A stretch of 64,000 nt of DNA from Cyanidioschyzon merolae (taxonomy: Eukaryota), in NCBI GenBank assembly GCA_000091205.1, contig AP006491.2. The stretch is one strand, 5' to 3'. The position numbers and the translations under genes are program-made. The notes under the pieces were generated by a model. The model was not told where the DNA came from. It searched no databases and worked only from the letters and a program-made list of their open reading frames with translations. This document shows positions 858-34,657 of this stretch, one piece after another (position 1 is the first letter of the stretch; each line of letters opens with the position of its first letter).

Positions 858-959
858 TGTACCATGGAGGTAGGTGTAGATCGATGGATACTTCACCGCG
901 CACTGAAAAAACACACACAAAAAAAAGTAAGAAAAGAAAAATGCGCAGAATCGGAGAAC

Positions 960-1600: not shown

Positions 1601-3189
1601 CACTTAATTCCCCATAGGTTTCCTACTTTATTTTTTTGAAAAGGAACGCTCTTTGAACGCTTATGTCATATAATGGGAAAAACACTTGAATACACTTGTT
1701 TGAGGTTTGAAACACGAATGAACTGAAAACTATGCTTTGCTACGACTACATCGCAAATCCAACTTGTTCGTTGGATCTACACACTCTATCTCGCCATGCG
1801 ATGCCGTTGTCATCCGTTCGACAAGGCCCCCAGCCACAGTGAACGCGCCTAATCTGGAGTCTCATGTCCCCCTAACAAGAAAACGTATTGTCAAGCTCGC
1901 GTTTCCCTTCAACGGCTACATTCGCGCCGTATCTCGTGACGGCCTGATCGCCCAGGTGCGCGTATCGAGTGCGCCACACAGAAAAAAGAACAGAGACTCT
2001 CGATTCACGAGCATGTAGATTTTGTTTTCCCTTTCGACGATAAACTTTGAAAGGAGAGAAAGCTTTCCGTATTTTAGAAACTTTACCTTTTACGCGTAAG
2101 ATCCCTAGAACTGTAAGAGTCTGCTAAGCTGGTGCTCGGTGTTCATCTAAAGTGGCTGGAGCAGCCGCGAGACCTGAGCAACTCGTCCCCAGAGCGGTTT
2201 ATTCCGGGACCAGGGGTGCTTAGGCAGCGTCTGCACGCCGCCCTGGTCGCAGCGTATCCAGTGGTAAGCCTAGACTGTTCTGTCTACGTGCCATGACCGC
2301 AGCGGCGCAATGGGGGCTACGGCGGGTGCTCACGGCATGCATTCGACACGCGATAGGGCGTGCGAAAGGACAATTATATCCGAGAAGAAGAATGGCTAAT
2401 GGAACGTGAAAGTAGAGTGCAACATGGTGGACGCTTTCCCCGAAGTCGCTGGCGGCGCGTCTCCATTCCATGCGAAAGTGCTGCACCGAGTTACTGGTAT
2501 CGATGACCCGAGTTCGATTAAACTTGAACAGTATATTGCTCGCCCTCTTCCTGCTTTTCGAATTTTAAAACTTTATTCCGATGGAAAGCCGCGGCATTCG
2601 AAAAGGGGCTATTGTGACTTACGCATTCTAACGAATATGCGGATCCTCGGCAGCGTTTTTGGAATGGCCTCCTCAACGCGTTACCACGGGAACTCTTTCA
2701 GTTCCGGGACGCGAGCTCATTTGCGAGACCCCCCGAGCGAGACTTCTTAAAATACCCGATACGATGATCCACCGCATACGCCCAAGTCTCCAAGCTTCCC
2801 TTTTTCTCACGATAAGTATGCTTCAACCATAAATGTTTCAAGGCGACCCGTTGACGCAGCAATGCACGTCACTAGATTGATGAGCAGAAAAATTCGACTT
2901 GCTCCACTGTGAGCATGTTCATGAGCTCGCACGGAAAGCTCTCTGAACTCATCAATTCAAATAATCGATTCTCTTCGAAAATGGACAAATGCTCCTCTAT
3001 TTGTGGCCATCAAGGAGGCCGCATTCGACAGCAGCACGATGCCTGTAATGGGATACGCTTCCAGAGCCATCCGCCTGCACAGTGTGAATGCAAAGGGGTC
3101 CTGCGCTCGGACCTCAGCCATCGCAGCGCTCGCTTCCTGCGGATAATGCGCAACCGTTTCGCATGATGGGGGCGTAGATGAACAGAGAT

Positions 3190-3460
3190 ATTACGACTTG
3201 ACCTCTAGCCTGTTTTTTCCCTTCCAGTGCCTTTTCAATGTAGACAACATCGCGTTCCACAAACCCCGTATCGAATGGGACAGCGTGCGCTTGCGTGTAC
3301 CTCGGACAGAGTCCTCGCCAAGGCGATCGCGCGGAAGAGGCCGGTGATCAGAGCGTACAGTAATGGGCACGAAAACGAAGAATGCGTCATGGGGAGCGCT
3401 CTGCACCCGTCAACTACTTGTACTGAGCGATGAAGCGAGCGGTCAAGCGCCACCAAGAAC
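3190..3460 (-). repeat. Fragment of dispersed repeat family C (inverted), about 210 bp 5' of SHMT
   Basis: Minus ORF 3235..3456 (LYALITGLFRAIALARTLSEVHASARCP) matches plus-strand 14433.. (LYATMTGFFRAIPSETTLSSAHASVCCP). Minus ORF 3191..3406 (GLWNAMLSTLKRH) matches 7621..8148 (SLWNAMLSLMKQ). Confidence 0.45.
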
Positions 3461-3669
3461 GCCTCAACCTAGTTGTCCAGTTTTCCTTGGGGGGCGAATG
3501 CGCTGCTCCAGGTGGAAACCCTCCTGAAGCGCGGCAAGTGGACGCGCGCTGCATCCTTCCAAAGCGATACATTTTGGGTCAAATCGTACGCTATGAACAG
3601 TATCCACCGCGGGCGCTCCGTCGAGCACCTGCGCTTCCGAACGCGGGTATTCGCGTAAACACAGAGGCC

Positions 3670-5244
3670 ATGTCGGGAGCGTGCCGTGTCACGGCATTTT
3701 GTTTCGCTTCTACTCATATCATCACAAGATCAGAAGAGCGATCGGCTAAAACAAGGTTCATATGGAGATGGCGCGTTCAATGGCGCGCTTCACGCTCTGC
3801 TGTGAACCGGCTTACTTGCACCGCGACCTCACCGTCGTCGCCCAAAACACCAACAACCTCTGCAGACGGGCACGCGCGGGACGGAACAGCGGGCCTGGAA
3901 CCCTTGCGCGTCTACGACCCGGAAGTGTACCAGATTCTCGAGAAGGAGAAAGAACGGCAACGGAGAGGACTCGAACTTATCGCATCGGAGAACTTCACCT
4001 CCGCCGCAGTGATGGAAGCACTCGGATCTGCCTTCACCAATAAGTATTCAGAAGGTTATCCTGGTCGCAGATATTATGGTGGAAACATGTATATCGATGA
4101 AGTTGAGCGGCTATGTCAGGAACGCGCACTCGCCGCGTTCTCCCTGTCGCCAACCGACTGGGGCGTCAACGTACAGCCGTACTCAGGGTCACCGGCCAAC
4201 TTTGCAGTCTATACGGCGCTGCTGAATCCGCACGATCGTATCATGGGCCTCGATCTTCCTTCCGGCGGACATCTAACCCATGGTTTTTACACGGCGAAGA
4301 AGCGCGTTTCGGCGACCTCGATCTACTTCGAGTCGCTGCCGTACCGAGTGAATGAAACCACTGGTTACATCGACTATGATGCGCTGGAGAAACAAGCCGC
4401 ACTCTTCCGACCAAAGCTGTTGATCGCTGGGGGCAGTGCGTATGCACGCGAGTGGGATTACGCACGTTTCCGGCAGATAGCTGACCAGAGCGGCGCGTAC
4501 CTCTTGGTCGATATGGCACACATCAGCGGACTTGTAGCGACCGGCGAAGCACAATCACCGTTCCCCTATGCAGACGTTGTGACGACGACGACGCACAAGT
4601 CGCTGCGAGGCCCCCGAGCTGGAATGATTTTTTATCGCCGGTCAGCGCTGGCAGAAATAGCACCGCGTGGTGCCGACCTCGAGCAGCGCATTCAGGAAGC
4701 GGTATTTCCGGCTTTACAGGGTGGTCCACACAACCACCAAATCGCTGCCTTGGCGGTGCAGTTACGCGAGGTACAAACGCCCGCCTTTCGAGCATACGCC
4801 AAGCAAATTCGACGGAATGCACAGGCCCTGGCCCGACGTCTTGTACAACACGGGTATGATTTGGTGACCGGTGGCACGGAGAATCATCTGGTACTGTGGG
4901 ACCTCCGACCGATCGGAATCACGGGAAGCAAGATGGAAAAGTTATGTGAATACGTGAGCATTACACTGAACAAAAATGCAGTACCCGGTGATACCAGCGC
5001 CCTGAACCCAGGTGGCGTTCGGATCGGCACGCCAGCGCTGACGACTCGCGGTTTTCGTGAGGCGGATTTCGAAAAGGTTGCAGACTTTCTGGATTCATGT
5101 GTGCGGATTGCACTCCGGATCCAGGAACAAAGCGGTAAGAAGCTTAATGACTTTGTCGCAATGCTTCCAGACGATCCAGAGGTGCAAGCGCTCCGTGAAA
5201 GCGTGGAGCGCTTTGCGAGCACCTTTCCTATGCCTGGTCGCTGA
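3670..5244 (+). CDS. SHMT: Serine hydroxymethyltransferase (glycine hydroxymethyltransferase)
   Basis: [61 protein letters not shown] and the PLP-lysine region [21 protein letters not shown] are SHMT signatures. The ORF opens at 3430, but homology starts about 80 aa downstream of the in-frame Met at 3670. That Met is taken as the start. It is followed by an R/S-rich presequence-like stretch, possibly organellar targeting. Confidence 0.85.
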
Positions 5245-6304
5245 TTCGTTACCCTCAAGCTGATTGCCCTGCTTGGACACGGACCCTCTATCTCTGTCGG
5301 GGGGTATGCACGAATACGGTGGAGGCACCTACACTCGCCCGTACTGTTTCCGGCGCATTCGACGAGAGCAGCGCCCTTATCTTTGTGAATCAGGCGTGGA
5401 CGTCTTCTCAAAGGCACCGCGATGACGCTGAAAGTGGTCACGAAACCCGTACGCAAGCAATAGATGCCGTCTATCGGAAACAGTTGTTCATCGGGGGATT
5501 TGCTCATCCACACGTCTGCACGCGTGGATGTTAGGGTGGAATCCAGCATGCCGGCATGGTAAAAATTCTCACGAATCGTTGATCCTCCGAACCGTCGGCA
5601 TCTGCACGTACAGGTACGGATACTAAAGTCGAATCCTTTATTTTCGTGATCTGTATCCACGCGTCTGGCAGCTCGTGCTCGTCAGCGCGTTTGCCGCAAC
5701 CTGCTGCTCCCTCTTCGGTGGTACGAATGTCGCCCAGCAGATCAGTTTCACCGTATCCGCCAGCCCAAAGTCGACGACGATCACAAAACAGGTCCCGGGT
5801 GCTCGTCACAACGGACCTCCGCTTTCGCGTCTGCGAACGCGAGCATCGAACGCGGAGCTTGCACGGCGCCAGGACGAGCGCTCGTTCATGCACAAACGCA
5901 AGCCTGTAGAAAAGCTTTCTGTGCTTCGTGCGACCTTGCGAAGCGATTTTGCAGGCCAGTGCCGGAACCTCGCCCAACTGATGTACGGCAACGCTGATTG
6001 TGGAAACGAGACAGCAAATTCAGCTGGATATCTGGACCTCTTCCCCTGGCATGTTTTACACGCCGTTCGATCATGACCAGAGCAGCGACTGCAGCGCTGC
6101 GATGCCAATGCGATCGCCAAGAGGTAGCGTCCCTCATCTGCAGGTCATCTAACAATCTAGGGACTGGTCTGTGGCAGCGGTGTGTGGCCCCCAGCGGTTT
6201 GCATTCCTTTGAACTGAAGAGGCACGAGCAGTAGTGGCGTGCAATGCATACGTCGGAGCCTCCTCGACATGAACGCCTTTCTGGGTAATACTCAGACTAG
6301 TGCC

Positions 6305-6362
6305 TTCTAGAGTGCCTGTACCAGCACGCCCGATTTGGTTTTGTTTGTTTTCCTGGCAGGAG
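6305..6362 (+). repeat. Copy 1 of a conserved 58-nt motif (stem-loop-capable, G/T-rich loop)
   Basis: ttctagagtGcctgtaccagcacgcccgAtttggttttgttTgttttcctggcaggag. It is identical at 55 of 58 positions to 21443..21500 in the same orientation, with unrelated flanks. GCCTGtaCCAG ... CTGGCAGG can pair. Confidence 0.5.
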
Positions 6363-7399
6363 GATCGAGTAGGATGACGAGGTCAGGACCCGTCTCGATG
6401 CTCTGGGTTCCTTTCCGATGAATGAGGACATTTTCTGCGCCTTATTTCGAGCGAATATTAGCGTCCAACTAGCGAAATCGGACAATCTCCGGCTGGAGTG
6501 CATGACATCGTGCACGGGACGCCAACGGTATCCGCAGTGCAGAGACAACAAGCGTGGATTCAAGTGTCTGCTCAATATGTAGGAAATAGAAATGACGAAC
6601 ATGACGTGTCGTTTGGTCGAGGCCCCTGGCTCTGGAGGTGCTGCAACGCGCTGAACCTGCACTTTTGCTCCGTCGACCAGCGCGCACAAAGTGAGCAGGA
6701 ACTGAATCTTTCCATCTCCCATCGATGCAATCCAGACGATTTGAGCGCATCACGAGCACAAGGGCACGTTGAGCGTGCTAGACGACAACAGCAACATCGT
6801 GAAGCAATGACGAATGCACCAGATGATGGAAAGTTAGTTGACCATCCGTTTATGGCGAGGCAGTCGGGGGCAAGAGACTTGCGATGATATGACTCTCCGC
6901 GCAACAGTACGCGCCATGACTTGATGCATCGTGACAGGAAGGCTCCCATCACGAGCGAGGGATGTCTCGTGCTTCCCGGGCGGACGTCCGTCGGCTCGGT
7001 ATCCAGCGAGCTTTCGCAGGAATCGTTTCGTACCAAGCGTGTGCGTTGTGCTGCGATGCGGAAGACTTGCGCTCACGAAATCAGTGCCTGGGAGAGGGTC
7101 ATAGATTCCCGTCTGGCTCAAGGCCCTGGCATGATACGGGGTCACCAATGCGGCAAGGCTGGTACGTTCTATGCATACATCGGGAACGGTTTCCCAGGTA
7201 ATCGGTGAACAAGAATGGTGCCATATCATTCAGTAGTACTGAATATTGGTATATATAGGCAGAACGTTTCACCGTAAACCTCTGATGGATTCCTAAAGCA
7301 ACGTCAGACTGAATCGGATCGGGTCCGTTCAGATAACCCGAGTGTTTACGCTCAACATGAGGGTCTCTTCTCCTTGTCATCAACATGAGCGTTTTGCGC

Positions 7400-8150
7400 G
7401 CTTCCACTGCGAATGCTTCCTTTTTCTCTCGCTTATATGCGGTTTTCAGTGTGCCGGTCTCTACGATCCCTCCAGCTCCGATGTCAGCTGTTGGGGAGAG
7501 TTCATGAGAGCGTGTGAGTCCCGCTCTCGTCGCTTCCTGCTGTTGTCGACGCATTGCATGCCGAGGCTCAAGTGACGATCTACATATCGATTCCCATTTT
7601 CACCGTCTTTGTAGATAGCCTTGATGCGCTCTTCGCAGCGCTGTTCATTCACTGAGCTCAGGTGCTCCCATCTGTCCACCGACTTTGCTTCTCAGAGCAT
7701 TGCCAACCTCTATAGTGTTCGAAAGCTTCGTTCATCTCGTTCGATGCCGTCCTCCGTTTCCGCGCTCGGTGCCGTACCGTGCGATCATGAGCAACTTCTG
7801 TATGAAAACTACGGCGACTGCGCTGTCCTCTGCACGTGGGAGCGCGCGCTGTTCCATGAAAGCCCGTCCTTGTGGAACGCAATGTTGTCCTTGATGAAAC
7901 AAGTACCGAGAAGCAAAATCCAGGATACAGAACATGATAACGAATTTCGATGTTCCGGTGCCCCGTTCGAGCTAAGCGATGCTGCACGCTCCACTGGAAA
8001 CAATCGCTCCGATGAATCTAGTCCGAGTCCGAGACGCTCTTTTACGAAAACAGCAGAAATGCGAGCTTCTCGCAACGTATCAGAGGAGAAGTATCATGCC
8101 GTTGTCGAATGGCGTCTTATCGATGGGAACAAAGATGGAAAAATCTAGTT
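7400..8150 (-). mobile_element. Degenerate copy of repeat family C (TnpB/Fanzor-like C-terminal block, coding sense on the minus strand)
   Basis: Minus ORF 7461..7679 (MDRWEHLSSVNEQRCEERIKAIYKDGENGNRYVDRHL...LTSELEGS) matches plus ORF 19954..20253 (MDIWESLILAMCHGCETHTDAVYKQDGNGKRSVDRNF...LTTQLEGI). Minus ORF 7732..7935 (MIARYGTERGNG) matches 19762..19944 (RIVWYGTDRGNG). The opposite-strand frames 7621..8148 match 14433..14744 at nucleotide level. Confidence 0.45.
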
Positions 8151-8860
8151 TTTGAACGGAACAGATGATTCAACTTGACAAGTTCCGTGAAGTTTCGGCT
8201 TATACTTGTGACCGAATCGTTCACGGACGACCTCGAGTATCTTTCCTCGTAAACCTAGCGGTGCAAAGGGCTGCACCCATGATTTGCCTTGAAATAAAGA
8301 GATCGAATCCCTGAAGGATTTGTGACATGCGCGTGCCTCATATAAAGAAAAGAGATGGGCGGAGGCTTTGCCTCATGAATTCGATGATGATATCGGTAAT
8401 TTCACGAACCTTCGTTCGGCGGCGTCGCCAAACATCCTGAATCCGGTGACGTAACAAAAGCCAACGGCAAAGCGTCGTAGCAGGCACTTCACCACTGAGA
8501 ACGCTGAGCCTACGTATGCATCCGCAAGCCCTTCGTGCAGCACTCGAAATTACAATTCTATACATGTACATACGGTTCGGAAAAAAATCTCAGGGCATGA
8601 ACAGTGCGACCAGTTCCATGTTTCAGTTTACTCTGACACGCGTCCTAGTGCAGGTAGCGGGGTGCGAGCTTCAGCGGCATCGTCCTCGCTTGACCAAGAA
8701 GCCTTGTAGTTACAGCGGGCGCGCTCCGATGCCTGAACGTCATCGCGAGCCCATCGGACAAGTTCCGCACTGAACGCCAATAACGCAACCCTCGTATTCG
8801 TCTTCTGCGTGTTGTGCAGGAGCCCGCCCTGGCAGCGGTTTCTGCAAAACTCGGCACCGC

Positions 8861-11341
8861 TCAGAGGACCTGTGGCACATCCACGGGACAAGGACATGAT
8901 ACGCGGGCAGCGGGTACCGGTCCTGGCCCTGGTTCCGCTGACGACGGCACCTCAGCCATAACTTGCGTACTGCGACGACGAAAGCGACGTGCTTGGTGGC
9001 ACACGCTGCGCACCATGGTGCCGCTCTCGGGTCCAAACAGATGCCGAGATATACCATCACGAAGCCCTGTTGCAGGACGTTCACAGAATGAGGCAGGTAC
9101 AGCCTGTGCTTCCCACTCAGTCCAAGTCGGGGAACGATTCAGCGCACCAACAAGCCCAGCGAGACGACGAGTCGCAGCCGTCCGAGCCACTTTTTCTATA
9201 TCCTCGACAGGCTCATGCCTGGTGTTGGTACCGCTCAGCGAACCAACAGCTGACGTACTCGAGGAGCGTGTGCGCACACCAGGTCCAGAGTGGCTCGCTG
9301 CATCCGCAGATGACGATCCGAGCGCTTGCGTTCCAGAAAGTGTTCGTGGACGCGACGCTGACGCCGTCACCGATCGGACATCGTCGAGGACTTTTCGAAT
9401 CTCTGACAAGTCCGTAGCATCGGGCAGCGCGCTGCGGCGTGTGCGTTTCTGTGGCGTTTCCGGCGGTGACATCACCGGCGTCGCCAGCCCTGCAGCCGGT
9501 GACGACTCCACATCCGAACTCGGGCACGCTGCCGTTGGTGCACCAGAATTCCGAGACCCGCCTGCGAGCGGCTGGGATAACGGCGTGCTCGACTTGACTG
9601 TCCGCTCAGGCGTTTTCAGCGCTGCTGCTGCTGCTGCTGCTGCACCTTTCTGTGAACGCAATGACCAGTGCGGGCCTGCCGTTTGCGCATGCGTCGAGAG
9701 CTCATCCAACATGGATGCGCTCGCAGGTGAATGACCTGATGAGGGAGTTTCGCACCTCAGGTCTCGCAATTTGGGTTCTATCTGGACCAGGTAATGCTGT
9801 TGGGCTCCGATCACAGATCCGGGGCGGCACAGCCGACACCAGGCAATGGCCTCCGTTGCCGTAAAGCCGTACATGTGCATCAAAGCACAGCACATAAGCG
9901 TTCCAGTGCGTCCAAGGCCGGCCTTGCAGTGAACCGCAACGGCACCCGGTTCATCCGCGCAAATCGCCAGAAAACGCTGGACGATATTCCAGTCCGGACA
10001 TGCACCGTCCGCAAAGTACAGATCGTAGTGACGAAATCCCGCTTGGCGAAAAACACGCGCGTCATAGCGTCGCCGGTTCAGACGTACCACAGCAGTGACG
10101 CCAAACTGCTGAAAGAGGCGAATAAAGTACTCGGGAGCACAGCCCACGCCGATGTCTGTTGCTTCCGGGCAGCTCGTCGGACCCGCGAACGCCAGCAGCT
10201 TACCCGGAACAATCCAGTTCAGGTCGCCGTTGTGTACTTGCTCCCAAAGCTCATATGATTCGATATCGAACGCATCTGGTGCGAAGAGGTGGCACACATT
10301 GGTCGCCCGATGCCAAGCGCTGATGCAGTCAAAGACGCCCAAAGGGAACGAGGATTCCGGACCAGCAGATGCATCGCGAAAGAAAACCAAAGAGCTTTTG
10401 AGACGCTGGAGTTTTGCATCGGCCTGTTCGGGGAGATCTCCAAGGCGAAGAACGCGATAGGCGCCCACCAGGGCTGCTGCGTTCGTCAAAGACTCTAGAT
10501 CATCTGTACAGAGCATGATGGCGATAGGAGACGCCCTGCCGGGGACATTGTCCTCCACGAAAGATCCTTCATCTCCGTCGCTAACAACAGTTTTCGGAGC
10601 GTATGCAAGATTGTGTTTCACTCCCTCGCCTTGGACTGCGTTGCCTCGCAGTGCTCCGTCGCACATACCCCGAGGCATCAAGACACCGTCCGTGCGTCCT
10701 TGCCAGAGATGCAGCTCTCGGACGATACTTTCAATACGCTGAATAAACCGCATGGTCTGCGCGAGATTGTATGGTCCAAAGTCGTTACAGAACGCCTCGT
10801 ACACAAGGTCGTCCTGGACGGAAAACAAAAGTCCAGCCAGGTGTCGAGTTCGGTTCGAGCGAGCGCCGCCACCTGCGGTGTCCGCAGCGTCCGCCTGCGG
10901 CCGGAGCGGCGTGCCGTTCGCAGTCGCTTCTGCGAAGAGCCCCAACAGCGTCGGCGGTGCTAACAACCGACAGTCCGGAGTGCGTCTTTCGCAGCATCCT
11001 CGATCGATGCTTTCAGATACTGGCCGGTCTTCAGGGTCTCGGGCGCGTACCGACCACGGAACCAGGTACACGAGACCAGGAACAACCTCAGCATAGAGCT
11101 CTAGACGAAGATGCGATCGCAGTTCTGGCCTCTGCTCCAAGGCAGAACGCAGCCAAGGAGACATCCAAGCCCATTCTTCATATGCACAGTGGGTTCTTTG
11201 TTCGTCGCCCTCAAAGCAACTGCTGCTTCGCTGCTCTGAGGGTTCCTCAGCTCCGCCCGGTCCCGCGCTTGTTCGCACGCGCTCCGACACAGACTGCGCC
11301 CTGCTCTGCTGGCGGGTGCGATGCGCAACACCGACCATCAT
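8861..11341 (-). CDS. CDC14: Dual-specificity protein phosphatase CDC14 with a long Ser/Thr/Ala-rich C-terminal tail
   Basis: N-terminal A-domain (YEAFCNDFGPYNLAQTMRFIQRI) and the catalytic B-domain P-loop AVAVHCKAGLGRTGTLMCCALMHMYGFTATEAIAWCRLCRPGSVIGAQQHYL are both present. The N-terminus has about 100 aa of extra sequence, so the start could be downstream. Confidence 0.8.
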   Translation of the reverse strand: MMVGVAHRTRQQSRAQSVSERVRTSAGPGGAEEPSEQRSSSCFEGDEQRTHCAYEEWAWMSPWLRSALEQRPELRSHLRLELYAEVVPGLVYLVPWSVRARDPEDRPVSESIDRGCCERRTPDCRLLAPPTLLGLFAEATANGTPLRPQADAADTAGGGARSNRTRHLAGLLFSVQDDLVYEAFCNDFGPYNLAQTMRFIQRIESIVRELHLWQGRTDGVLMPRGMCDGALRGNAVQGEGVKHNLAYAPKTVVSDGDEGSFVEDNVPGRASPIAIMLCTDDLESLTNAAALVGAYRVLRLGDLPEQADAKLQRLKSSLVFFRDASAGPESSFPLGVFDCISAWHRATNVCHLFAPDAFDIESYELWEQVHNGDLNWIVPGKLLAFAGPTSCPEATDIGVGCAPEYFIRLFQQFGVTAVVRLNRRRYDARVFRQAGFRHYDLYFADGACPDWNIVQRFLAICADEPGAVAVHCKAGLGRTGTLMCCALMHMYGFTATEAIAWCRLCRPGSVIGAQQHYLVQIEPKLRDLRCETPSSGHSPASASMLDELSTHAQTAGPHWSLRSQKGAAAAAAAALKTPERTVKSSTPLSQPLAGGSRNSGAPTAACPSSDVESSPAAGLATPVMSPPETPQKRTRRSALPDATDLSEIRKVLDDVRSVTASASRPRTLSGTQALGSSSADAASHSGPGVRTRSSSTSAVGSLSGTNTRHEPVEDIEKVARTAATRRLAGLVGALNRSPTWTEWEAQAVPASFCERPATGLRDGISRHLFGPESGTMVRSVCHQARRFRRRSTQVMAEVPSSAEPGPGPVPAARVSCPCPVDVPQVL

Positions 11342-12012
11342 CTCCGTCGTGCCTGTGCAGCTACTGAAAGCTGATAAGCACAGGACAAAAGTTCAGAGGC
11401 TACAAACACGTCTTTGCATCCACGTCCGAGCACACATTCGTCAGGGACGCTGCAAAATAGACCCCCGATGGATCCGCCTCCGATGCCGGGGAGTGTAGGC
11501 CCCGGTGCGCTTCGACGGCCTTGTTTCGTTGTTCGCAGCCGCAGCTCGATGCGCGATCTCCGGCGGATGCGCGCCTGCCGTGGACGTAACGGTCGCGCGA
11601 TGCTACTGGGCCTTGCATCGCATACGACTCAAATGTACAGAAATGTTCAAATTGATACGGCGATCGTTACGAGCGCGTGTGCGTGCGATTTGGCTGTGAT
11701 GGAAAAACGTGTCCATGGACTGTGGATGGCCCAAATTGCGGGATAGGTGAGCATTGACATTCGGGAAAGCGTCCATCATGCTGCGCAATACTCACGCCCA
11801 AGTTCTATTACCTATGCTTCCTATTTTCTATATGGTGCGCTTGATATTTGCACCTCCAGATCTGACATGCATTGAACACGTCGCGCATGTCGCCGCTTTA
11901 GGGAAACGCGATACTGATCATCAGCGTGACGCTCGAACGAACAAGTTGTATTTGCGTCAAATTCGTACCAAAGTAGAGTGTTTATCCCAATCGTGTTTCA
12001 ACCATCAAGTAC

Positions 12013-13941
12013 GTGTATTCAAGTGGTTATTTGCAGTTTGTATCAGAAGCGTTCAAAGAGCGATATAAAAAAATCAAAAAATGGAAAGTTTCGGAAGAGG
12101 AAGAGGAGGATCCTGGAGGCGGAGTATCACCGGCTGGCAGAAAAAAACAAAAGACAGTGCAGAGCGAAGAAGAACAGGAAAAGACGAAGAAGCAAAAAGG
12201 AGAGGCTCTACCTCAAATGCTGGAAGAAAGACGACGGTGTGACGAGATGGTAGTGAAAGCCTGTCTTCGTAAACAGAACAAAGATCCGTACAAGCAGGCG
12301 TTGCGGGAGGCCATTAGAAACCGTGTTGAGTCGTACTGTAGGAGTATTCGTAACGCTTCTTTTGGACATATGCATATAGCGAAGGAGATGTATCGTAACG
12401 TGACGCACATGGAAACAGTCGAGGTTCCGGATGAATTTTTCAACGAGAACTTATTCGTCGCTTGCTGGTTGGCACAGGGGAAGCTTCGACGAAAACAATG
12501 AGCGAGTGCATGCTCTCCACGAACATTGCGCCGAATTTCGCTTCAGCGATACTCGATACAAGGATGTCCGGCATATTTACACCTACGAGCCGATGTAGTA
12601 CCCGACGAACCTGAGGAACCATTTGACCAAGAACCTCAAACGCTTCGTGATACGCTCCATCTTTGCACTATACCCGGGCCTCTCTCGCAAAGTGATTGAG
12701 GATCATAGTCGATGGCATCGTTAACGATAGTAAGAATGAAGAGGAGAACGAATTCGTTGAGAAGAAGACATTACACAGGGGACAGAATGAAGCTTCTGGA
12801 ATCCGTGCGGCTATTCAAGAGCACCGTGTGGTCGTGGGCCTGTTCAACCCAGCAGAAATGGTATCCGATATGGAATAAGATTAAGAAAGATGCTATCCCC
12901 TAATCCTGCGGTTTTTCGTGTTTTTGGACCGAGAACTCGAACGTAAGGCGGAGATGGAGCTGGGTGTCGTAAAATGAAGAGTCGGAGAAACGGAAGGCTG
13001 CCCTAATGGGAACGCGCTTCAACGGCGTTCCATTGTGGAACATCAAGTCGCACATTGTGACCATCAACTCCAGAGTCCTTCACAGCTTAATGAAAGAGGT
13101 CACCCCAGTGTTCGATGTCCATGAGGAGGAGTTCAGCAAAGTGACAAGCCGCGGAGCGGACTTTCGAGCCTTCCGGGAATTCATGGAAGCTCAGGCTGCT
13201 CATGACTGCGAGATGTGGAAATGGTCCGGAAAGCCCCGGAGGGCCCGTCAGCATGTGAACCTGTATTGTGGCAAACAGCGTGCATTCACCAACTTCTTCA
13301 ATCAGTTGAGCGTCCTCAAGGTGGTCAAGAGTCAAAGGATTGTAATATCGTACGGAGCAGGGCGCTTTGTACCCGGAAGACGGAGCGCACCCGCTCCATC
13401 GACACGAGCGAACAAGGAGTGCGCATACCTGTTTATTCCATTTCCGATAGATGAGTTCCGAACGTCCTATGTGCACCATGAGCTGAGATGTGCATTCCAG
13501 AGAATCGAGTTGGAGAAGTGTCAGCAGAGCCCTGAGCAAATAGAAAAATACTGTGCGCTAACGGAAGTGCAAATGGAAAGGAGGGCGAAAGTTCGACGGC
13601 TACTCGCATTAGAGAGTACAATCAACGGCAAGAAACGTACGGAGTTTGTGAATCGTCAATTTCACGCTGTTATCACAATAATGAGATGTGCGGTGCTGGA
13701 GACGAGACCCGAGGAGTTGACGCGAACCATCTCTGTGGGGCAGCTCCTCAAGGTCGCATTGTACGGAGAGAAGTTGAAACCAGTAGTTGCAGGCCGGTCA
13801 AAAAAGGCTGGGAGGCGTCTGCACGTCGGTGGGAGACGTATTGTCTACGTCGGGCGGTTTGCAGCTCGCCACCACAGTACACCCGTTATGCAGCGTACGC
13901 CGACTGAAACGCAATCGCTTCTTTGTCACACAATTTTGTAA
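12013..13941 (+). mobile_element. Longest copy of a TnpB/Fanzor-like (RuvC/Zn-ribbon, OMEGA-family) element; degenerate and frameshifted, likely non-autonomous
   Basis: Adjacent same-strand ORFs 12013..12501, roughly 12600..12900 and 13006..13941 form one broken reading frame with NLS-like K/R tracts. The C-terminal part reads RIVISYGAGRF ... FIPFPIDEFRTSYVHHELRC ... NRQFHAVITI. Compare TnpB/Fanzor ...vDP.YTSq.Cs.CG... and RuvC-III hRD.NAA.NI. The Cys to His and Asp to Gln substitutions suggest an inactivated copy. The paralogue at 34658..34891 retains RDFDAAFNV. Confidence 0.45.
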
Positions 13942-14429
13942 GCATAAAGTTGAAATCGCTCCTTGAAGCATGCACTCGTGCACTCTGAATTTTGGGTATT
14001 GCCCCAGCGTTATCAAAATTGCCCCTTGGTGGATGGTTTTGCAGCTGCCTCCTTTTCTCTCCATCATCTCCGCGTTTGAAAACGTCGGTCTCTCGAGTCC
14101 CTACAGCTCTGCGGTCCGCAATCAAAGGTTCTTGATGGCAGCGTGCAAGTCCTTATTTCCCAGCTTCCAGGTGCAATCGACACCTTCTATTCACAGGCGA
14201 AAGTTGCGATACACGCATCGCTTGACATTTTCATTCGTTTTTTTGGACAGGTTCGGTGCTTCCTACGCAGCGGTGACATTAGAATGCTATCGGATGCTCC
14301 TACGCGTCCACCAATTTTCCTCATGCTCTGACCACCGACCTATGGCGCGTAAAGACTTGAGTCATCGCTCGGCACATACCATGGACGGCTAGACAAGGCG
14401 ATTCGCCTCGCGCTCCTCTGATTCCGAGC

Positions 14430-14850
14430 CCCGTGTTGTACGCTACGATGACGGGGTTCTTCCGGGCGATCCCTTCGGAGACTACTTTGTCCAGTGCACA
14501 CGCGAGCGTATGCTGTCCTCTTCAAGGGCGTATTTGTAGAACGCAATGCTGTTCACGATGGAACGAGTACCGGAAGCGAAAAATTCAGACTGTAGAAAAA
14601 CGTGACCCAAGAACTTCGATCCTGCTGCGTGCCCTTTGTGCAAAAGCGACGGTGCGCCCTCCAATGGAATCCATCTCGACGATGACTCAGGCCCGAGTCC
14701 GAGACTCTTTTCCATCGAATCACAAGAACTGGGAGCCCCTGTGACCATATCCCGTGATACACGTCATGCTCGTGTCGATTACCATGTCGTCGAGGGCTAC
14801 AAAGAGAAGAAGCATCAAATTTCGAACAGAGTCGATTATATGACGTGAGC
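14430..14850 (+). repeat. Fragment of repeat family C, about 640 bp 5' of MetRS
   Basis: Nucleotide-level homology of 14500..14720 to 7830..8050 (gtagaacgcaatgctgttcacgatggaacgagtaccggaagc vs gtggaacgcaatgttgtccttgatgaaacaagtaccgagaagc ; cccgagtccgagactcttttc vs tccgagtccgagacgctctttt). Residues 14433.. match the 3235..3456 copy. Confidence 0.4.
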
Positions 14851-15490
14851 CATTCACTTTTCGTTAGGCCTGAGCCCCCAGAGAGGCTTCCAAGGTTCGA
14901 AGCCGATCATGCGTCCGCGTCAACCCAGCGGAACGGAATCCTGGTCCCAGACGGTGCTCTGAACGAGAAAGAGTGAAAATTTGACGAGTGCATGATTGGT
15001 GGACGGTGCGCGTAAGGAGATATGTGTAGTCGTCTTCGCATGTAATGGATCATGATTCCTGATATTTTACGATTCCGTGTTCGTGGGCGTCGCGAGACAT
15101 CCTGATTCCGCAGACGTAACGCACTCCAGCGGCAACGCGTCGAATGACCCATTCCGATACGACGACAGCGCTTCTCCAAACGACGTATGATTCCATAATC
15201 CCTTCTCGCCGCACTTCGAATGTGGCGTCTGTGCGCCTAACCGATTTCGGAAATTATCGACAGACCGGAGCAAAGCGAGCAGTTCAGTGTCCCATTCTCA
15301 TTGGACCCGGGCCTCGGCACCGTCGACAAACAGTATGACGCAACCTCGTATGGACGTCGCCCGGCTCATGCCGCAACGCGACGATCGATCAAGGCCGTGG
15401 TCTGGACGATCGTTTGCGTCTGCAGCCTGCCGTAGTTTGTTTGTTTGTTTTGTACTTCCACAGGCGACGTGACCTTGTGCTTCGCGGTAC

Positions 15491-17959
15491 ATGTCTGCTG
15501 AGAGCGACCTGGCTGATGATTTGGACCGGCAGGCCTCATTGACGTCATCGAGGACGAAGAAGATACCCATTCAAGGAACTCGAAACGTCCTCGTTACGTC
15601 CGCGTTACCGTACGTCAACAACGTGCCGCACCTGGGAAACCTCATCGGTGCTGTGCTCTCCGCTGACGTCTACGCGCGCTACCTACGTCAGTGTGGAGTC
15701 AATGTGCTCTACATCTGTGGCACTGATGAGTACGGCACCGCCACAGAAACAAAAGCGAGAGAGGAAGGCGTATCGCCAAAGGCGCTTTGTGACAAGTACC
15801 ACGAACTGCACCGACACATCTACCAGTGGTTCGACATACGCTTTGATCACTTTGGACGAACATCTATCCCTCAGCAGACAGCCATCTGTCAGGAGATATT
15901 CTGGGATGTGTACAGAAACGGCTTCGTCGTCGAGGACACCGTCGAACAGCTCTACGACGCGGAGGCGGGTATGTTCCTCGCAGACCGCTATGTGCGGGGC
16001 ACGTGCCCGCACTGCGGCTACGCTGAGGCGCAAGGAGACCAGTGTGACGCGTGCGGGAACCTTCTGAACCCGACGGAACTGTTGGATCCTCGTTCCGCAC
16101 TGACCGGAAGCGTCCCAGTGCGCCGCACGTCCCGCCACCTTTTCCTGGACCTTCCGCGGCTGCGTGACGAACTGGAGGCGTGGATTGAGCGCTCTGCAGC
16201 TCGGGGGCAATGGAGCGAAAATGCCCTCACGATGACGCGGAGTTGGTTGCGTGATGGTCTCAAAAAAAGATGTATCACAAGGGATCTGCGTTGGGGCGTT
16301 CCAGTTCCACTAGATGGATTCCAAGACAAAGTTTTCTACGTCTGGTTCGATGCTCCGATTGGCTACCTGAGCATCACTTCGGACTACATGGGCGACAACG
16401 AGAGCTGGCGCTGCTGGTGGCAGCAGCCAGACGATGTTGAACTCATTCAGTTCATGGGCAAGGACAATACACCATTCCATACGATCATTTTCCCGGGAAC
16501 GCTACTCGCTACCCGGCGTCCGTTCACCATGCTTTGTCGCTTATCGACGACAGAATATCTGAACTATGAGAGCGGTAAGTTCAGCAAAAGCCGCGGTACT
16601 GGCGTCTTTGGTGACAGCGCATCCGAGACGGGTATACCCGCTTATGTGTGGCGTTATTATTTGGTGGCAAATCGACCAGAGCAAGCAGATTCTGTCTTTA
16701 CATGGACCGATCTGGCTGCAAAGAATAACAACGAATTGCTTGCGAACATTGGCAACGTCGTCAGCCGCGTGGTTGCTTTTGTTCAGAACCAAATGGGAGG
16801 CGTGCTGCCGGCGCTCGCGGACGCCTGGTCACCAGCGCCGCTCGATGAACGCTTGTTCGAGCAGGTTACGGCGGAGTTGCAGGTTTTTCATCAGGCAATG
16901 GCGAATATCGGCTTGAAGGCAGCGCTGCGCTCGAGCATGTCCATCGGAAGACTCGCGAATCAGTACTTGCAGGAAACAAAGCCGTGGGACCTCTTCAAAC
17001 AGGACTCGAAACGCGCAGACGGTGTTCGTGTTCTCGTCATCGCGAGTGCAGTTATCCGCTTGCTGGCTGTGACCCTCGAGCCGTTCCTGGGGTCGGGCTT
17101 CGCGAGGCTGGTTTTCCAACAAATCGGTGTACCCCATGCCGATGAGACAAATCGAATTCCGCAGCGTTTCGATCGATCGCAGCTTCAGGAATGGAACTAT
17201 GGCACCGAATCATTTGCGTTTGGCAAACCACAGCACCTGTTCACGAAGCTGGAACCCAGCTTCATAGAAGAGCTCCGTCGCCATTTCGCGGGACATGTTT
17301 CTGCCAACGAAGGCTCGGCATCGAGTGGTGTGGCATCTTCCGACAGCGAGCTACCTCTGGAACTTCGTCTCGGACGGATTATGCAGTGCAACAAGACAGC
17401 GCAGTCCGATCAATTGTATCAGTTGGTGCTGGATCTAGGCCCCGAGGAGGGATCTCGCCAAGCAGCGGCAAATCTCGGACATGCGTTTCCGATGACCAGC
17501 GACTTGCTCGGCCGCTTCGTTGTCGTATGCTGTAATGTGGAGCGCGCGGTGCTAGGCGGTGTGCAAAGCGAGGCTATGGTGCTCGTTGCAGAGAAGAAGG
17601 CGCGCACAGCGCTCCTAACAGTGCGCCACGCGAATGAGGCTATGCTAGGGGCAAGACTGCTCCCATGGTCAGCGTCTGAATCAGGAAATCCGCACACGGC
17701 ACTGATGAACGCAGCTCCGCTGTCACCCCTGGATCGGAAGGGTCTCCAGAGCCGTCTGAAGGAACTTCGTGTTCGCGACGACGGTGTCGTGATTTGGAAG
17801 CAAAACAAGCCGCTGGCAGCTGTCGTCCGAGATCCCGATGATCCACGTCCTCTTGGAACATCTAGCGACCCCGCGATGAAGCCGTCTACCGCATGGGTCG
17901 TAGTTAGCGCCGAAGCATCCCTGGATGTAGGATTCTGGAATAACGCACGTGTACGGTAG
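15491..17959 (+). CDS. MARS: Methionine--tRNA ligase (cytosolic type) with a C-terminal EMAP-II/Arc1p-like tRNA-binding domain
   Basis: HIGH-region LPYVNNVPHLGNLIG and KMSKS-equivalent KFSKSRG are present, together with the zinc knuckle CPHCGYAEAQGDQCDACG. The C-terminus LELRLGRIMQCNKTAQSDQLYQLVLDLGPEE...VVVCCNV is tRNA-binding-domain-like. The ORF is 822 aa with no interruption. Confidence 0.9.
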   Translation: MSAESDLADDLDRQASLTSSRTKKIPIQGTRNVLVTSALPYVNNVPHLGNLIGAVLSADVYARYLRQCGVNVLYICGTDEYGTATETKAREEGVSPKALCDKYHELHRHIYQWFDIRFDHFGRTSIPQQTAICQEIFWDVYRNGFVVEDTVEQLYDAEAGMFLADRYVRGTCPHCGYAEAQGDQCDACGNLLNPTELLDPRSALTGSVPVRRTSRHLFLDLPRLRDELEAWIERSAARGQWSENALTMTRSWLRDGLKKRCITRDLRWGVPVPLDGFQDKVFYVWFDAPIGYLSITSDYMGDNESWRCWWQQPDDVELIQFMGKDNTPFHTIIFPGTLLATRRPFTMLCRLSTTEYLNYESGKFSKSRGTGVFGDSASETGIPAYVWRYYLVANRPEQADSVFTWTDLAAKNNNELLANIGNVVSRVVAFVQNQMGGVLPALADAWSPAPLDERLFEQVTAELQVFHQAMANIGLKAALRSSMSIGRLANQYLQETKPWDLFKQDSKRADGVRVLVIASAVIRLLAVTLEPFLGSGFARLVFQQIGVPHADETNRIPQRFDRSQLQEWNYGTESFAFGKPQHLFTKLEPSFIEELRRHFAGHVSANEGSASSGVASSDSELPLELRLGRIMQCNKTAQSDQLYQLVLDLGPEEGSRQAAANLGHAFPMTSDLLGRFVVVCCNVERAVLGGVQSEAMVLVAEKKARTALLTVRHANEAMLGARLLPWSASESGNPHTALMNAAPLSPLDRKGLQSRLKELRVRDDGVVIWKQNKPLAAVVRDPDDPRPLGTSSDPAMKPSTAWVVVSAEASLDVGFWNNARVR

Positions 17960-19699
17960 CGCCGTTCGCATTCGATGATCGACGAGCTGCTACCTACCTT
18001 AGGATACCTAAACACCGCACTATTCAATCTCGCCCCGAGGATGGAATGTTCGAAGCGATCGAGCAAGAGCTGTTGACCCGGGCTCTGCAGCCTGAACACA
18101 AGTATGTGGACTAGAGCATGCGCTCTTCCATCTGTTGAAGTCGTCCATCATCGCGGATACTACAATTCTGTTGTTCGACTCGCTCCTGAACAGGACTGGC
18201 TATTCACATGGCAATCAATGGAAAAGCGGAGACCGACACTATCAAGAGCGGCTTGAGTCGTGCCCGGCATTCACCCGTTACGAGCACGATGCGACGCATG
18301 CGCGTCTGGCGAGGCCTCTACCAAGCGCGCACTGCAGACGGAACGCACTGCACGGGAGCCTGTCCACGCAGGGCGACGTTTTCGGTGGTGCACGTCGTTC
18401 TACCAGGCCCCTGAGCGCGCTTCGAACGATGTCGCCCTCCAAGATCCGCAGGATGCCGAGCGACTTGACCCGCGCGTACTGAGGTAAACGACGCGGTCCT
18501 AGACTGTAGCAGGTATCCGCGAATCACGCAAGCCTAAAACGCCAGTGCTGTAACTGCCGAGACTTTCCAGACGCATGTACGGATGAGCAAACTCGTTCAT
18601 CAAGTAGGACAGGGCCCAAAGATGCCAGCATTTGCACCAATCCAACATGTACGCGGTGTGCCGCTAGCCTCGAGTGCGTCCTCTCCGTCTGCTACGATGC
18701 GGTCGCTATGATTGTACAAAGGGTGTGCGCGGCTCTGCATGAGCATGCTTCCGCGACGACATATGATGACATTCATGAATCGTAGGCTGTTGGAATCTGA
18801 ACACAAGTGAAGAAAGGATAGACACTCTCCTGGATGCCGATTTTCATCCCGGAATCTCCGATCCCTGGTCAGTGTCGATGCAATACCCATCAAAACAATG
18901 ACTGGTGTGTGCGCGTACATCCGTAAACGTGCATGCTTCTATGCACTGGGAGCTCGCCTATATCCAGGTCACATGAACACGGAATACTGAACTGCTCGCG
19001 CTGTTACACCCTCGATATTGTTTCCGAAACTGTTATAGATGTCCCGACTCGACACACGAATTGCAGCAGTGGGGATTGCGGATGCCTAGGGCATTGCAGG
19101 ATTCCGGGCCTTGCTTCCCGAGTCGATCCTTTGACGCCCTGCCGCTGGAATTTCGTACGGTCATCGGAATCAAGATGACTCGCGTCGTCCGCGAACAAGG
19201 ATGCGTCAACGAAGAGAGTTCATGTTCAAATGCATATGTGCCAGCCTGAACGCCTCTCCATGCCTCATGTGTATCGTGGCTAGTTCATACAATTTTCAAG
19301 TTATCGGTTTTTCTGTTTCACGGCAACTTGTGGACACAGCAACGCTCACCGCTGGATTGAAGAGGAAAGCATGCGGCATCGTCACTTAAAGTCGTGTTCA
19401 CACGCGCACGACGAAATTTCACGGATCTCTTCGTGTCAACCGAGAATCCATTTCGATCGAAGGACAGCGTGTACCCGATTGTGGCCGTCGGAACCAACGG
19501 CATTCGACAGTAGCATGATGCCTCTCACTAGATATGCTACCAGAAGCGCTGGGCCCCTCTGGTTCCATGGAAAACCGTCTTGCACTAGAGTCATCGCAAC
19601 GATCTCTTCCAGCGGGGAGTGTGTCATTACGCTCTACGAAGATGCGTAGAAGGATCGATATTTCTCGATCTGATCCCCTGTCTGAATTCTTCTTCCGGG

Positions 19700-20400
19700 G
19701 CATGTTTCTTCATCATCAACGTTGCGCTCCATAACTCGGTTGCGTGTAACAACGTGCGATTGTGCGTACACCGGACAGAGCGCTTGTCGAGAGGATCACC
19801 CACGAGAAGAAGCTACGGATCGTATGGTACGGAACCGACCGTGGAAACGGTTGCGCGCATCGGCTGGAGTCATCTGCTCCCGTCACGGGCAGGCACCGTG
19901 CGATGACGCAAGCGTTCACGCGCCACAGCGTATTCCGCAGCTGAAGAATCGTTGTGGATATCTGGGAATCCCTGATCCTAGCCATGTGTCACGGTTGCGA
20001 AACGCACACCGATGCTGTCTACAAACAAGACGGAAATGGCAAGCGCAGCGTAGATCGCAACTTTTGCACCCACGTAATATGCATATACAACATCGGGAAC
20101 TATCGAAATCAGGAACCTAACGCTGCTGTCGATGTTCTTCAACTGCTGACAACACAGCTGGAGGGAATCGAGAAACGCCCGTCTGGAAAGCCAGAGATAA
20201 GAGACAGGAAAAGCAAGCAGTTCCATGCAGAGTTTGAAAAACACTGGTATTGAGTACCAGAAAAAAGAAACCCAAAGGTTGAAGTTCATGCCCGAGTTAC
20301 ACAAGTAGACCTGTTCTATTTGATGCTCACATCGCTAGCAGACTGCGCTGATCCAAGTCGCGTGAAACGCTGCTTCGCGCGCACACATCGTCGATTCGAT
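19700..20400 (+). mobile_element. Copy of repeat family C retaining a Zn-ribbon plus RuvC-III-like block (TnpB/Fanzor-like C-terminus), about 250 bp 5' of NDUFS7
   Basis: ORF 19954..20253 reads AMCHGCETHTDAVYKQDGNGKRSVDRNFCTHVICIYNIGNYRNQEPNAAVDVLQLL...LEGIEKRP. This is CxxC-(22)-C(x)4C followed 12 aa later by NAAvDvL. The upstream ORF 19762..19944 reads RIVWYGTDRGNG, which parallels RIVISYGAGRF in 13006..13941. The tail LEGIEKRP parallels LEKRPEEL in the 34658 copy. Confidence 0.45.
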
Positions 20401-20497: not shown

Positions 20498-21190
20498 ATG
20501 AGTCAGGTGTTCATCCTGAAGCGTGTTTTCAGTCGGTGTACGAGACCGCTTCTACCAGTGGTAGAACGAAACAGCGGAGCAGCGAGCTGCTTCGTCACTG
20601 GGTACCACGGGGCTGCGCTCTCGACGCAAGCGGACACGGTTCCGAGCGTGCGCCCCGGCACCGCTCCGCGGGTGCTCAAGTCGTCTGCTCCATCGCTGCC
20701 GGTGGGCATGCACCCGGAAGGAAAGTTAGAGTATGCCGTATCGAAGCTGGACGACTTGGTGAACTGGGCGAGGCGGAGCTCGGCGTGGCCGATGACGTTT
20801 GGTCTCGCGTGCTGCGCAGTCGAGATGATGCACGCAGCTGCCGCGCGCTACGACTTTGATCGATTCGGCATCATCTTTCGACCATCACCGCGGCAGAGTG
20901 ATGTTATGATCGTGGCCGGGACTTTGACGAATAAAATGGCACCAGCTTTACGGAAAGTGTATGATCAAATGTCGGAGCCGCGCTGGGTCATCAGCATGGG
21001 GTCTTGCGCGAACGGCGGTGGCTACTACCACTACAGTTACTCGGTGGTGCGCGGTTGCGATCGAATCGTCCCCGTTGACATATATGTACCGGGTTGTCCG
21101 CCGACTGCGGAGGCCTTGGTCTACGGTGTATTACAGTTACAGAAGAAGATGAAACGCCAACAGACTTTGCTCGCTTGGATGAAGAAGTGA
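20498..21190 (+). CDS. NDUFS7: NADH:ubiquinone oxidoreductase (complex I) 20 kDa PSST subunit / NuoB homologue, with an N-terminal presequence
   Basis: [107 protein letters not shown] is the diagnostic PSST/NuoB core with the Fe-S cysteines. About 70 aa of S/R/A-rich leader precedes it. Confidence 0.9.
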
Positions 21191-34652: not shown

Positions 34653-34657
34653 CCAGT

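Follow-up and report, generated by a model that had tools for sequence, protein, structure and literature searches.

The 64-kb stretch of Cyanidioschyzon merolae DNA analyzed here (64,000 nucleotides of contig AP006491.2, referred to as the window) is intron-poor eukaryotic DNA with a G+C content of ~56% and harbors diverged dispersed repeats. Self-comparison at both the DNA and the translated levels revealed these repeats, which belong to two families with different histories. Family 1 is the known Fanzor1 element CMe-1A, and family 2 is a decayed mariner-type element bearing the tail of a Fanzor1 protein. We consider it probable that the relics as a whole are best explained by two transposon families acting unrelatedly to one another: family 2 is placed at random, while CMe-1A is oriented toward start codons. 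An earlier note on the same DNA had assigned all of the copies to a single TnpB/Fanzor-like family, which was claimed to sit preferentially in the immediate 5' flanks of housekeeping genes. Diverged copies were indeed present at the places it gave, but the elements turned out to be larger than supposed and to comprise two families instead of one. Its interpretation was supported in part, being wrong for the copies it listed and right, and sharper, for CMe-1A.

Orientation of CMe-1A relative to host genes

The distribution of both families was assessed in a test set of 55 sequences (836 kb in total), comprising the 64-kb window and 54 non-redundant related metagenome loci. For the latter, 80 loci were taken of the 452 metagenome-contig candidates encoding relatives of family 1, and near-identical loci were then collapsed. 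Both families were masked with profile models (nhmmer map) before gene ends were counted. Host genes were called as ATG-to-stop open reading frames (ORFs) with a codon-bias score and without curated annotation, and two Fanzor-like ORF calls (Fanzor-host fusions in loci L026 and L084) were taken out of the gene set.

In this test set, the intact 3' end of CMe-1A faced the 5' end of a same-strand gene in 41 of 49 independent loci and a gene 3' end in the remaining 8 (binomial p = 2e-6), while the 3' ends of ordinary genes faced a 5' end in 61 out of 157 cases (39%; Fisher p = 2.7e-8 against CMe-1A). The 5' end of the element faced gene 5' and 3' ends in a ratio of 26:9 (p = 0.006), and the nearest gene end of either kind was distributed 41:10 (5':3'). 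The bias was stable at four gene-calling stringencies (68/85, 75/90, 65/85, and 55/80). The 3' end of CMe-1A was separated from the first ATG by a median of 49 bp, as against 418 bp for family 2 (p = 1e-6), and 21 of the 41 start-facing copies lay at a distance of 50 bp or less. The divergent, tandem, and convergent spacers holding CMe-1A numbered 22:15:1, as compared with 15:36:40 for the spacers free of transposable elements (TEs); convergent spacers accounted for 1/38. As family 2 is tolerated in convergent spacers, the bias of CMe-1A is not a general intolerance of such spacers. The 5'-flank preference proposed in the earlier note holds for CMe-1A, which that note had touched through the SKA1-adjacent copy only.

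The ORFs abutting CMe-1A were diverse, encoding glutaredoxin, a macro domain protein, Tim17, glutamyl-phosphate reductase (GPR), UFD1, a zuotin-type DnaJ, an RsmB-type methyltransferase, ATP synthase beta, and phosphoglucomutase. In several of them (Tim17, UFD1, DnaJ, and GPR), the first Pfam domain began at residues 11-27, implying that their true starts are not far downstream.

In the window, two CMe-1A copies have kept a 3' part, and both are directed at gene starts, namely those of MetRS and SKA1. The former copy (11826-13919, plus strand) lies ~190 bp from MetRS (15491-17959, plus strand; an 822-aa ORF 100% identical to the methionine-tRNA ligase of C. merolae 10D) after the removal of a family 2 copy nested between its 3' end and the MetRS start. 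The latter (34634-35996, minus strand) directs its 3' end toward SKA1 (ORF 33615-34652, minus strand), the first ATG of which, at 34508, is found 125 bp from the last matched base of the element; the gap is shorter than 125 bp if an unmatched tail of ~95 nt is allowed for. A presence/absence comparison was uninformative, the locus compared (L001) being the same locus at the strain level (99.2%) with identical relics. Altogether, we regard the 5'-flank bias of CMe-1A and its orientation rule as real in this data set, with a confidence that is good but not final.

Identity and structure of CMe-1A

CMe-1A was reported to occur in ~150 copies in C. merolae and was left unclassified (Bao and Jurka, 2013, PMC3627910). 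According to the same account, the element is ~3 kb in length, encodes Fanzor1 only, and has neither terminal inverted repeats (TIRs) nor detectable target site duplications (TSDs), its copies being ~80% identical to the consensus; a short family, TE-N2_CMe, consists of the 5' ~635 bp only (PMC3627910). Family 1 matches CMe-1A and TE-N2_CMe in organism, size, the lone Fanzor1 gene, ~80% identity, end features, and the presence of a short 5' family.

The family 1 element spans ~2.7-3.4 kb with one Fanzor1 ORF of ~830 aa. Its 3' end is sharp, marked by a hairpin and TT[TC]G ~60 nt past the stop codon, and its 5' ends are graded, with a T-run ahead of them. The last ~240 nt, terminated by the hairpin, are strongly conserved. 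Neither TIRs nor TSDs of at least 8 bp were found in CMe-1A, and a search for the longest words shared between flanks gave no TSD signal for family 1 or family 2. A splice acceptor in the 3' end of family 1 (TTTGTTTCCAG|G) was considered and rejected, since it is present in only a subfamily.

The search for homologues recovered 103 close database relatives with the motifs GADPGNTN, VDEFRTS, and NRDFNAAINIR, and an exhaustive profile search found 1437 relatives in a representative library. In an alignment of 43 diverse full-length relatives (A3), D248, E420, and D489 were invariant (in GxDPGR, VDEFRT, and NRDLNAAxNI, respectively). The A3 profile matched the solved Fanzor1 proteins of Parasitella (9cf0) with an E-value of 1e-18, Spizellomyces (8gkh) with 2.6e-10, and Guillardia (9cer) with 6e-6. 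No match to PDB sequences was obtained with single sequences or with a shallow profile (A1), and Pfam gave no hit on the close homologues. The stretch corresponding to the C4 zinc ribbon is degenerate, with only two Cys in the consensus, and PF07282 matched 5/43 of the diverse relatives (best E = 5e-4). The catalytic triad D...E...D is kept in the family but not in the window copies.

Four CMe-1A relics were mapped in the window. The copy at 11826-13919 has lost RuvC-I through an internal deletion of ~590 model positions (from 2011 to 2602), and its RuvC-III is mutated (VNRQFHAVITIMR), motif III reading VNRQFHAV. The 311-aa ORF at 13006-13941 is a remnant of this copy, the 3' end of which is directed toward MetRS. 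At 997-2447 (minus strand), only a 5' part remains (model 115-1586) and the 3' part is lost, while the piece at 654-896 (minus strand; model 125-373) covers the 5' end only and resembles TE-N2_CMe (PMC3627910). The relic next to SKA1 is a non-autonomous derivative of ~1.4 kb, in which a Fanzor C-terminal coding fragment (34634-34986; model 2945-3300), and nothing further of the coding region, is preceded by an upstream part of ~950 bp; the same junction was found in at least 6 loci. This is the copy that the earlier note placed at 34658-34950. It is real, but it belongs to CMe-1A and not to the family of the other copies listed there.

Several side observations concern the ends and junctions of this family. 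In many copies, a variable tail rich in G and T (TTGTTGGTG..., GGTGGTGGTG...) separates the terminal hairpin from unrelated host DNA, as seen at L082:11640-11660, L059:3120-3131, and L080:4475-4489. Taken with the graded 5' truncation and the missing TSDs, such a tail is reminiscent of one-ended copying of the rolling-circle or retro type. In the consensus, the 5'-terminal GACAAAACGT (...ATGACAAAACGTTTAC...) is complementary over 10 nt to the subterminal 3' ACGTTTTGTC (...GGAGACGTTTTGTCTAGG...), ~85 nt before the 3' end, which resembles the asymmetric TIRs of Helitron2 but lies further from the end than in that group. In some relatives (L003:130-1902 and L004:2680-4244), the Fanzor1 reading frame continues, or all but continues, into the host gene downstream, and gene callers have produced chimeric proteins such as P0024, which continues into an unrelated C-terminal sequence. 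Positions 1-982 of the window match L024:7060-8024 at 88-90% (88% over 984 bp), beyond the span of 654-896 covered by the family 1 model. The L024 segment was rejected as an orthologue and is another repeat; the match points to an additional repeat of fairly young age, or to an extended form of TE-N2_CMe, at the window's left edge.

Possible origins of the orientation rule

We infer that the placement of CMe-1A combines a preference for promoter-containing spacers with a strict filter on orientation. The element would insert into promoter or 5'-UTR (untranslated region)-proximal DNA and persist only in the sense orientation, in which transcription out of its 3' end would keep the downstream gene expressed. 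TnpB and Fanzor need outward transcription across the 3' end for the omegaRNA with its guide of flanking sequence, so that the gene would stay expressed after a sense insertion a few tens of bp ahead of its start codon. In the opposite orientation, an insertion at these positions would shut off essential genes and be eliminated. We put forward, tentatively, that CMe-1A-type elements may be oriented "upstream cassettes", which land or survive only tens of bp upstream of a start codon in the sense orientation; the host gene would be transcribed from or through the omegaRNA-bearing 3' end, and the natural guide would be the 5' UTR of an essential gene. If this is true, Fanzor read-out transcription would be linked to host gene expression, and there would be a testable rule of targeting or retention for transposase-less Fanzor1 elements.

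It is also conceivable, albeit rather doubtful, that the pattern stems from target choice alone, that is, strand-specific integration into DNA opened at transcription start regions with no selection for promoter donation. Rolling-circle (Helitron2-like) transposition, single-strand 'peel and paste', and target-primed reverse transcription are candidates for such a process. The sharp 3' end with its hairpin, the graded 5' truncations, the T-run, and the lack of TIRs and TSDs are consistent with target choice and resemble CRe-1/2/3 (PMC3627910), but Bao and Jurka, who defined Helitron2, left CMe-1A unclassified (PMC3627910). The 5' end of CMe-1A, which also prefers promoter-containing spacers (the 26:9 ratio above), points in the same direction, and CMe-1A is young relative to family 2 (column majority ~0.9), which favors insertion bias over long-term sorting. 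On the other hand, neither a transposase or Rep gene nor a defined target motif was found, nor were any pairs of empty and filled sites. Moreover, an insertion at 50 bp or less from the start codon of an essential gene should in most cases be lethal unless the element restores expression, implying that selection is hard to leave out.

Structure and decay of family 2

Approximately 60 nhmmer hits of family 2 were detected in ~1.06 Mb of loci from related algae, 35 of which were full length. None of the 35 contained an intact ORF, and the median pairwise identity was 54%. Pfam gave no hits on the ORFs that family 2 copies form in the window, and a frame-corrected consensus of the five window copies, which align over ~1.3 kb with ~56% column identity, yielded sub-threshold matches only (DDE_3, E = 2e-5; PF07282, E = 0.23). 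Two reading frames were restored in the consensus of 33 copies. The first comprises a helix-turn-helix (HTH) region (HTH_33, E = 4e-4; HTH_Tnp_Tc3_2, E = 1e-3) and the N-terminal part of a DDE_3 transposase of the IS630/Tc1-mariner type, matching positions 3-113 of the 146 in PF13358 (E = 4e-10; 40.1 bits against a cut-off of 28.6). After a frame shift follows a clean frame of 190 codons (VIVGYGTGRG... VVDIWEHLTTVKCHRCEG... CMKC... NRDLNAAINIL), in which RuvC-II, a CxxC..CxxC zinc ribbon, and RuvC-III of a Fanzor1 tail are recognized. This part matched PF07282 (Cas12f1-like/TnpB zinc ribbon) with an E-value of 4.3e-8 (33.6 bits against a cut-off of 26.3), and hhalign aligned it to the 43-sequence Fanzor1 profile A3 over 132 columns, spanning VAYG..., the VDE-like motif, CxxC..CxxC, and NRDLNAAINIL, with a probability of 98.1% and an E-value of 7.7e-14. 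On the strength of the 33-copy consensus and the hhalign result, we rejected the possibility that family 2 is purely a DDE transposase with "RDxNAAxNI" occurring by chance.

The element is bounded by TIRs of ~25 bp (CACCC[G/A]TGTCAGATTAAAATGGAAC, inverted at the two ends). The T/A just outside both ends is conserved among the 33 copies (left, 23/18 of 32; right, 17/19 of 28), albeit a TA internal to the TIR is indistinguishable from a TSD in copies of this age. The match to the transposase stops at DDE_3 position 113/146, before the third catalytic residue, and the DD(E/D) triad is incomplete. Together with the absence of intact ORFs from all 35 full-length copies, this implies that family 2 is non-autonomous and dead. 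The Fanzor-derived part lacks RuvC-I and the N-terminal domains (~70% of Fanzor) and is regarded as a fragment, not a Fanzor gene. Family 2 is thus an ancient, wholly decayed, non-autonomous mariner-type element of 1.4 kb, in which a truncated transposase is fused to a Fanzor1 tail. The most economical origin that we can infer is an internal-deletion derivative of a mariner carrying a downstream Fanzor1 gene on the same strand; such a derivative would have been mobilized in trans and then decayed.

Families 1 and 2 are adjacent and convergent at 6.4-8.6 and 11.8-15.3 kb of the window, and we considered whether they constitute one composite element. This was rejected because intact family 1 directly abuts host genes without family 2 (L003 and L004), and because family 2 also occurs alone with its own TIRs.

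Family 2 is represented by five copies in the window. Copy A (2506-3453, plus strand) is truncated at its 3' end and covers positions 10-980 of the 1388 in the nhmmer model; its DDE-derived part and the start of its Fanzor-derived part were located by tblastn with the halves of the consensus at 2625-3308 and 3233-3465, respectively. The remaining four copies are full length, and the parts of three were delimited in the same way. Copy B (7301-8644, minus strand; DDE 8550-7812, Fanzor-derived 7899-7392) lies 217 bp 3' of the stop codon of the CDC14-type phosphatase gene (8861-11341, minus strand). Copy C (13937-15315, minus strand; DDE 15224-14452, Fanzor-derived 14563-13987), which is the copy nested between CMe-1A and MetRS, has its 5' end 176 bp from the MetRS ATG. 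Copy D (18957-20333, plus strand; DDE 19080-19807, Fanzor-derived 19750-20220) ends 165 bp before the ATG of NDUFS7 (20498-21190, plus strand). Copy E (50789-52154, plus strand), which was absent from the earlier list, is found 404 bp past the stop of an 662-aa gene and 284 bp ahead of the ATG of an 836-aa gene.

The identities proposed in the earlier note for SHMT (ORF 3430-5244, plus strand; Pfam E = 3e-189), CDC14, MetRS, NDUFS7, and SKA1 were all confirmed. Of the intervals it gave, 3190-3460, 7400-8150, and 19700-20400 largely correspond to Fanzor-derived segments, but 14430-14850 is mostly DDE-derived. The label "TnpB/Fanzor-like" fits each listed copy in its 3' third only, the rest being of the mariner type (the DDE_3 match described above). 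The distances to genes were roughly as given there, except for copy C, which was put at 640 bp from MetRS instead of 176 bp.

As a separate observation, the first in-frame ATG of SHMT (3430) falls inside copy A, and the SHMT Pfam domain does not begin before residue 160. The true start may lie further downstream (3670 was used in the earlier note); otherwise, an N-terminal extension or transit peptide would be partly derived from the transposon. For annotation, this exemplifies that some start codons and 5' regions in C. merolae lie inside or against transposon relics.

Placement of family 2 and the weight of the evidence

The nearest gene ends of copies A-E in the window are 5', 3', 5', 5', and 5', respectively, and 4/5 corresponds to a one-sided binomial p of 0.19. 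In the related genomes, the placement counts of which comprise 24-37 independent copies, the nearest gene end was distributed 13:11 (5':3'; p = 0.84). The 3' end of the element faced gene 5' and 3' ends in a ratio of 12:15, and the 5' end in a ratio of 17:20. Divergent, tandem, and convergent spacers numbered 5:12:7, about 1:2:1. The TE-bearing spacers of the window (all relics included) are two convergent, one divergent, and three tandem, which equals the 1:2:1 of random gene orientation. On its 3' side, family 2 was never found closer than ~160 bp to an ATG. In sum, the position of family 2 is random relative to gene ends, and the 5'-flank preference claimed for the listed copies was not supported. 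The closeness of the window copies to gene starts is attributable to genome compaction: the spacers are short (~0.2-1 kb once the elements are subtracted), and ~3/4 of the spacers in a compact genome hold at least one gene start. The window copies lie 165-284 bp from the adjacent gene end, be it a start or a stop. This calls for caution, as closeness to a gene start is what a compact genome offers by default. The emphasis on "housekeeping" genes adds nothing, since almost all genes of this 16.5-Mb genome are of that kind.

The earlier note had further proposed that the listed family prefers promoter or nucleosome-free DNA, or that its fragments are kept as promoter sequences. A gene start being nearest for four of the five window copies, at 165-284 bp, agrees with this, but we regard it as very improbable in view of the counts given above, the lack of orientation bias, and distances from stops (217 bp for copy B) similar to those from starts. 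Functional retention also predicts a conserved segment in a family as old as this one (54% pairwise identity), and none stands out.

The earlier note regarded the copy at 7400-8150 as the only one 3' of a gene. Copy B is indeed 3' of CDC14, but two relics between gene 3' ends were overlooked. One of them (6373-6918, plus strand) is an older, distant Fanzor-like relic with ~30% amino acid identity to family 1, hit by 48 proteins of the family, in the convergent spacer between SHMT and CDC14. The second, of the same older lineage (22896-23650, plus strand; 134 hits), lies in the convergent spacer between NDUFS7 and a 925-aa gene.

Could the bias of CMe-1A be an artefact of ORF-based calling, metagenome assembly, or non-independent (orthologous or duplicated) loci? 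The genes were called without annotation, contigs often break at repeats, and the first ATG is not necessarily the true start, but this is hardly credible given that near-identical loci were collapsed, that the flanking genes in the test set were all distinct from one another (194/194), that the two Fanzor-like calls were removed and four stringencies agreed, that ten abutting ORFs have ordinary Pfam domains near their N-termini, and that family 2, an internal control in the same sequences and pipeline, displayed no bias.

Some points nonetheless weigh against explaining the relics by a randomly placed family 2 and a start-codon-oriented CMe-1A. The statistics come from metagenome contigs of related Cyanidiales (MetRS ~71-72% identical), not from C. 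merolae itself, and only two CMe-1A copies in the window are informative. Gene starts were taken as the first ATG of the ORF calls, and the true starts may be further downstream. As for family 2, a full-length parent with mariner and Fanzor was not found, and the DDE part has only one database relative (P0104), itself a decayed ORF. As for CMe-1A, the AlphaFold2 model of P0016 based on the alignment A1 had a mean pLDDT (predicted local distance difference test score) of 38 and a pTM (predicted template modeling score) of 0.22, and RNAalifold found no consensus pairs in 47 aligned 3' ends. Finally, the two older Fanzor-like relics in convergent spacers imply that the orientation rule is not universal to Fanzor lineages.

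Other features of the window

A stretch of 58-75 bp is shared at 87-95% identity between the spacers at 6288-6362 and 21426-21500, a level of conservation that none of the neighboring transposon relics approaches. The two copies are located upstream of the two older Fanzor-like relics, one each (6373-6918 and 22896-23650, respectively). The stretch had no tRNA hit, no Rfam hit, and no match in the related loci; the tRNA and Rfam scans gave no hits anywhere in the window. Two tandem arrays were found, one at 26772-27233 with a period of 32 bp (~10 or more units) in the spacer after the 925-aa gene, and the other at 58500-58926 with a period of 24 bp (~11 or more units; 94-98% identity) inside the ORF 58227-59030. 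The ORFs 38345-40036 (563 aa) and 39948-45638 (1896 aa) are on the same strand and overlap by 89 bp in different frames, and the stop of the 1896-aa ORF coincides exactly with the beginning of the ORF 45638-46987. Very tight gene packing or frameshifts could account for this arrangement.

Significance and comparison with known elements

How transposase-less Fanzor1 elements spread and persist is a standing question, and CMe-1A has been puzzling since 2013 because intact Fanzor ORFs are kept despite its age. The orientation rule (84%, with a median distance of 49 bp, and a co-resident mariner-type family without bias) leads to two ideas, transcription-coupled targeting and promoter donation by omegaRNA read-out, both testable in a genetically tractable alga. 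For C. merolae, a complete genome, homologous recombination, and abundant RNA-seq data are available.

The element CMe-1A itself is already known, and promoter-proximal targeting is a familiar transposon strategy, as in Tf1 of S. pombe, the P element, and Mutator-like elements (MULEs). CMe-1A is similar to these in the enrichment in promoter-containing spacers (divergent over tandem, and both far over convergent). However, Tf1, P, and Mutator-like elements encode their own integrase or transposase and obey little or no orientation rule, whereas CMe-1A encodes only a homologue of RNA-guided nucleases, follows its orientation rule in 84% of the cases, and stops only some tens of bp from the start codon. 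The literature searched contained no rule of this kind, oriented and proximal to start codons, for a Fanzor1 element lacking a transposase. The published account of CMe-1A (PMC3627910) includes neither the position and orientation relative to genes, nor the rule relating the 3' end to start codons, nor the deleted derivative of ~1.4 kb.

Among Fanzor1 elements, CMe-1A can be compared with the Helitron2 elements CRe-1/2/3 of Chlamydomonas, which are 5'-truncated with intact 3' ends and are inserted after TTTT (PMC3627910). Both are non-autonomous and carry Fanzor1 only, and they share 5' truncation, intact 3' ends, a 3'-terminal hairpin, and T-rich sequence before the 5' end. Unlike CRe-1/2/3, CMe-1A has no asymmetric TIR by the 3' hairpin, the 10-nt complementarity ~85 nt from the end being all that was found, and has neither variable TSDs nor a known RepHel partner.

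At the protein level, family 1 resembles TnpB of the IS200/IS605 TnpB-omegaRNA systems and the characterized Fanzor1 proteins SpuFz1, GtFz1, and PpFz1 (8gkh, 9cer, and 9cf0, respectively) in the RuvC D-E-D core and the profile match. In TnpB and Fanzor1 systems, the omegaRNA is expected at the 3' end of the gene or element with a guide from the flanking DNA, and the same is predicted for family 1 by analogy. In contrast to the characterized Fanzor1 proteins, the family 1 copies in the window are dead (RuvC-I deleted and RuvC-III mutated), and the C4 zinc ribbon of family 1 as a whole is degenerate.

Fanzor1 genes are carried by the Tc1/mariner elements PGv-1, PUl-1, and PUl-4 (Bao and Jurka, 2013, PMC3627910). 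At the level of the consensus, family 2 shares with these the combination of a mariner-type transposase and Fanzor1 in one element, TIRs, and the TA duplication. It differs from them in that every copy is decayed and in its organization as a 1.4-kb chimera devoid of the end of the transposase and of the N-terminal ~70% of Fanzor including RuvC-I. Mariner-borne Fanzor1 genes are already known, while the chimeric derivative of 1.4 kb is new.

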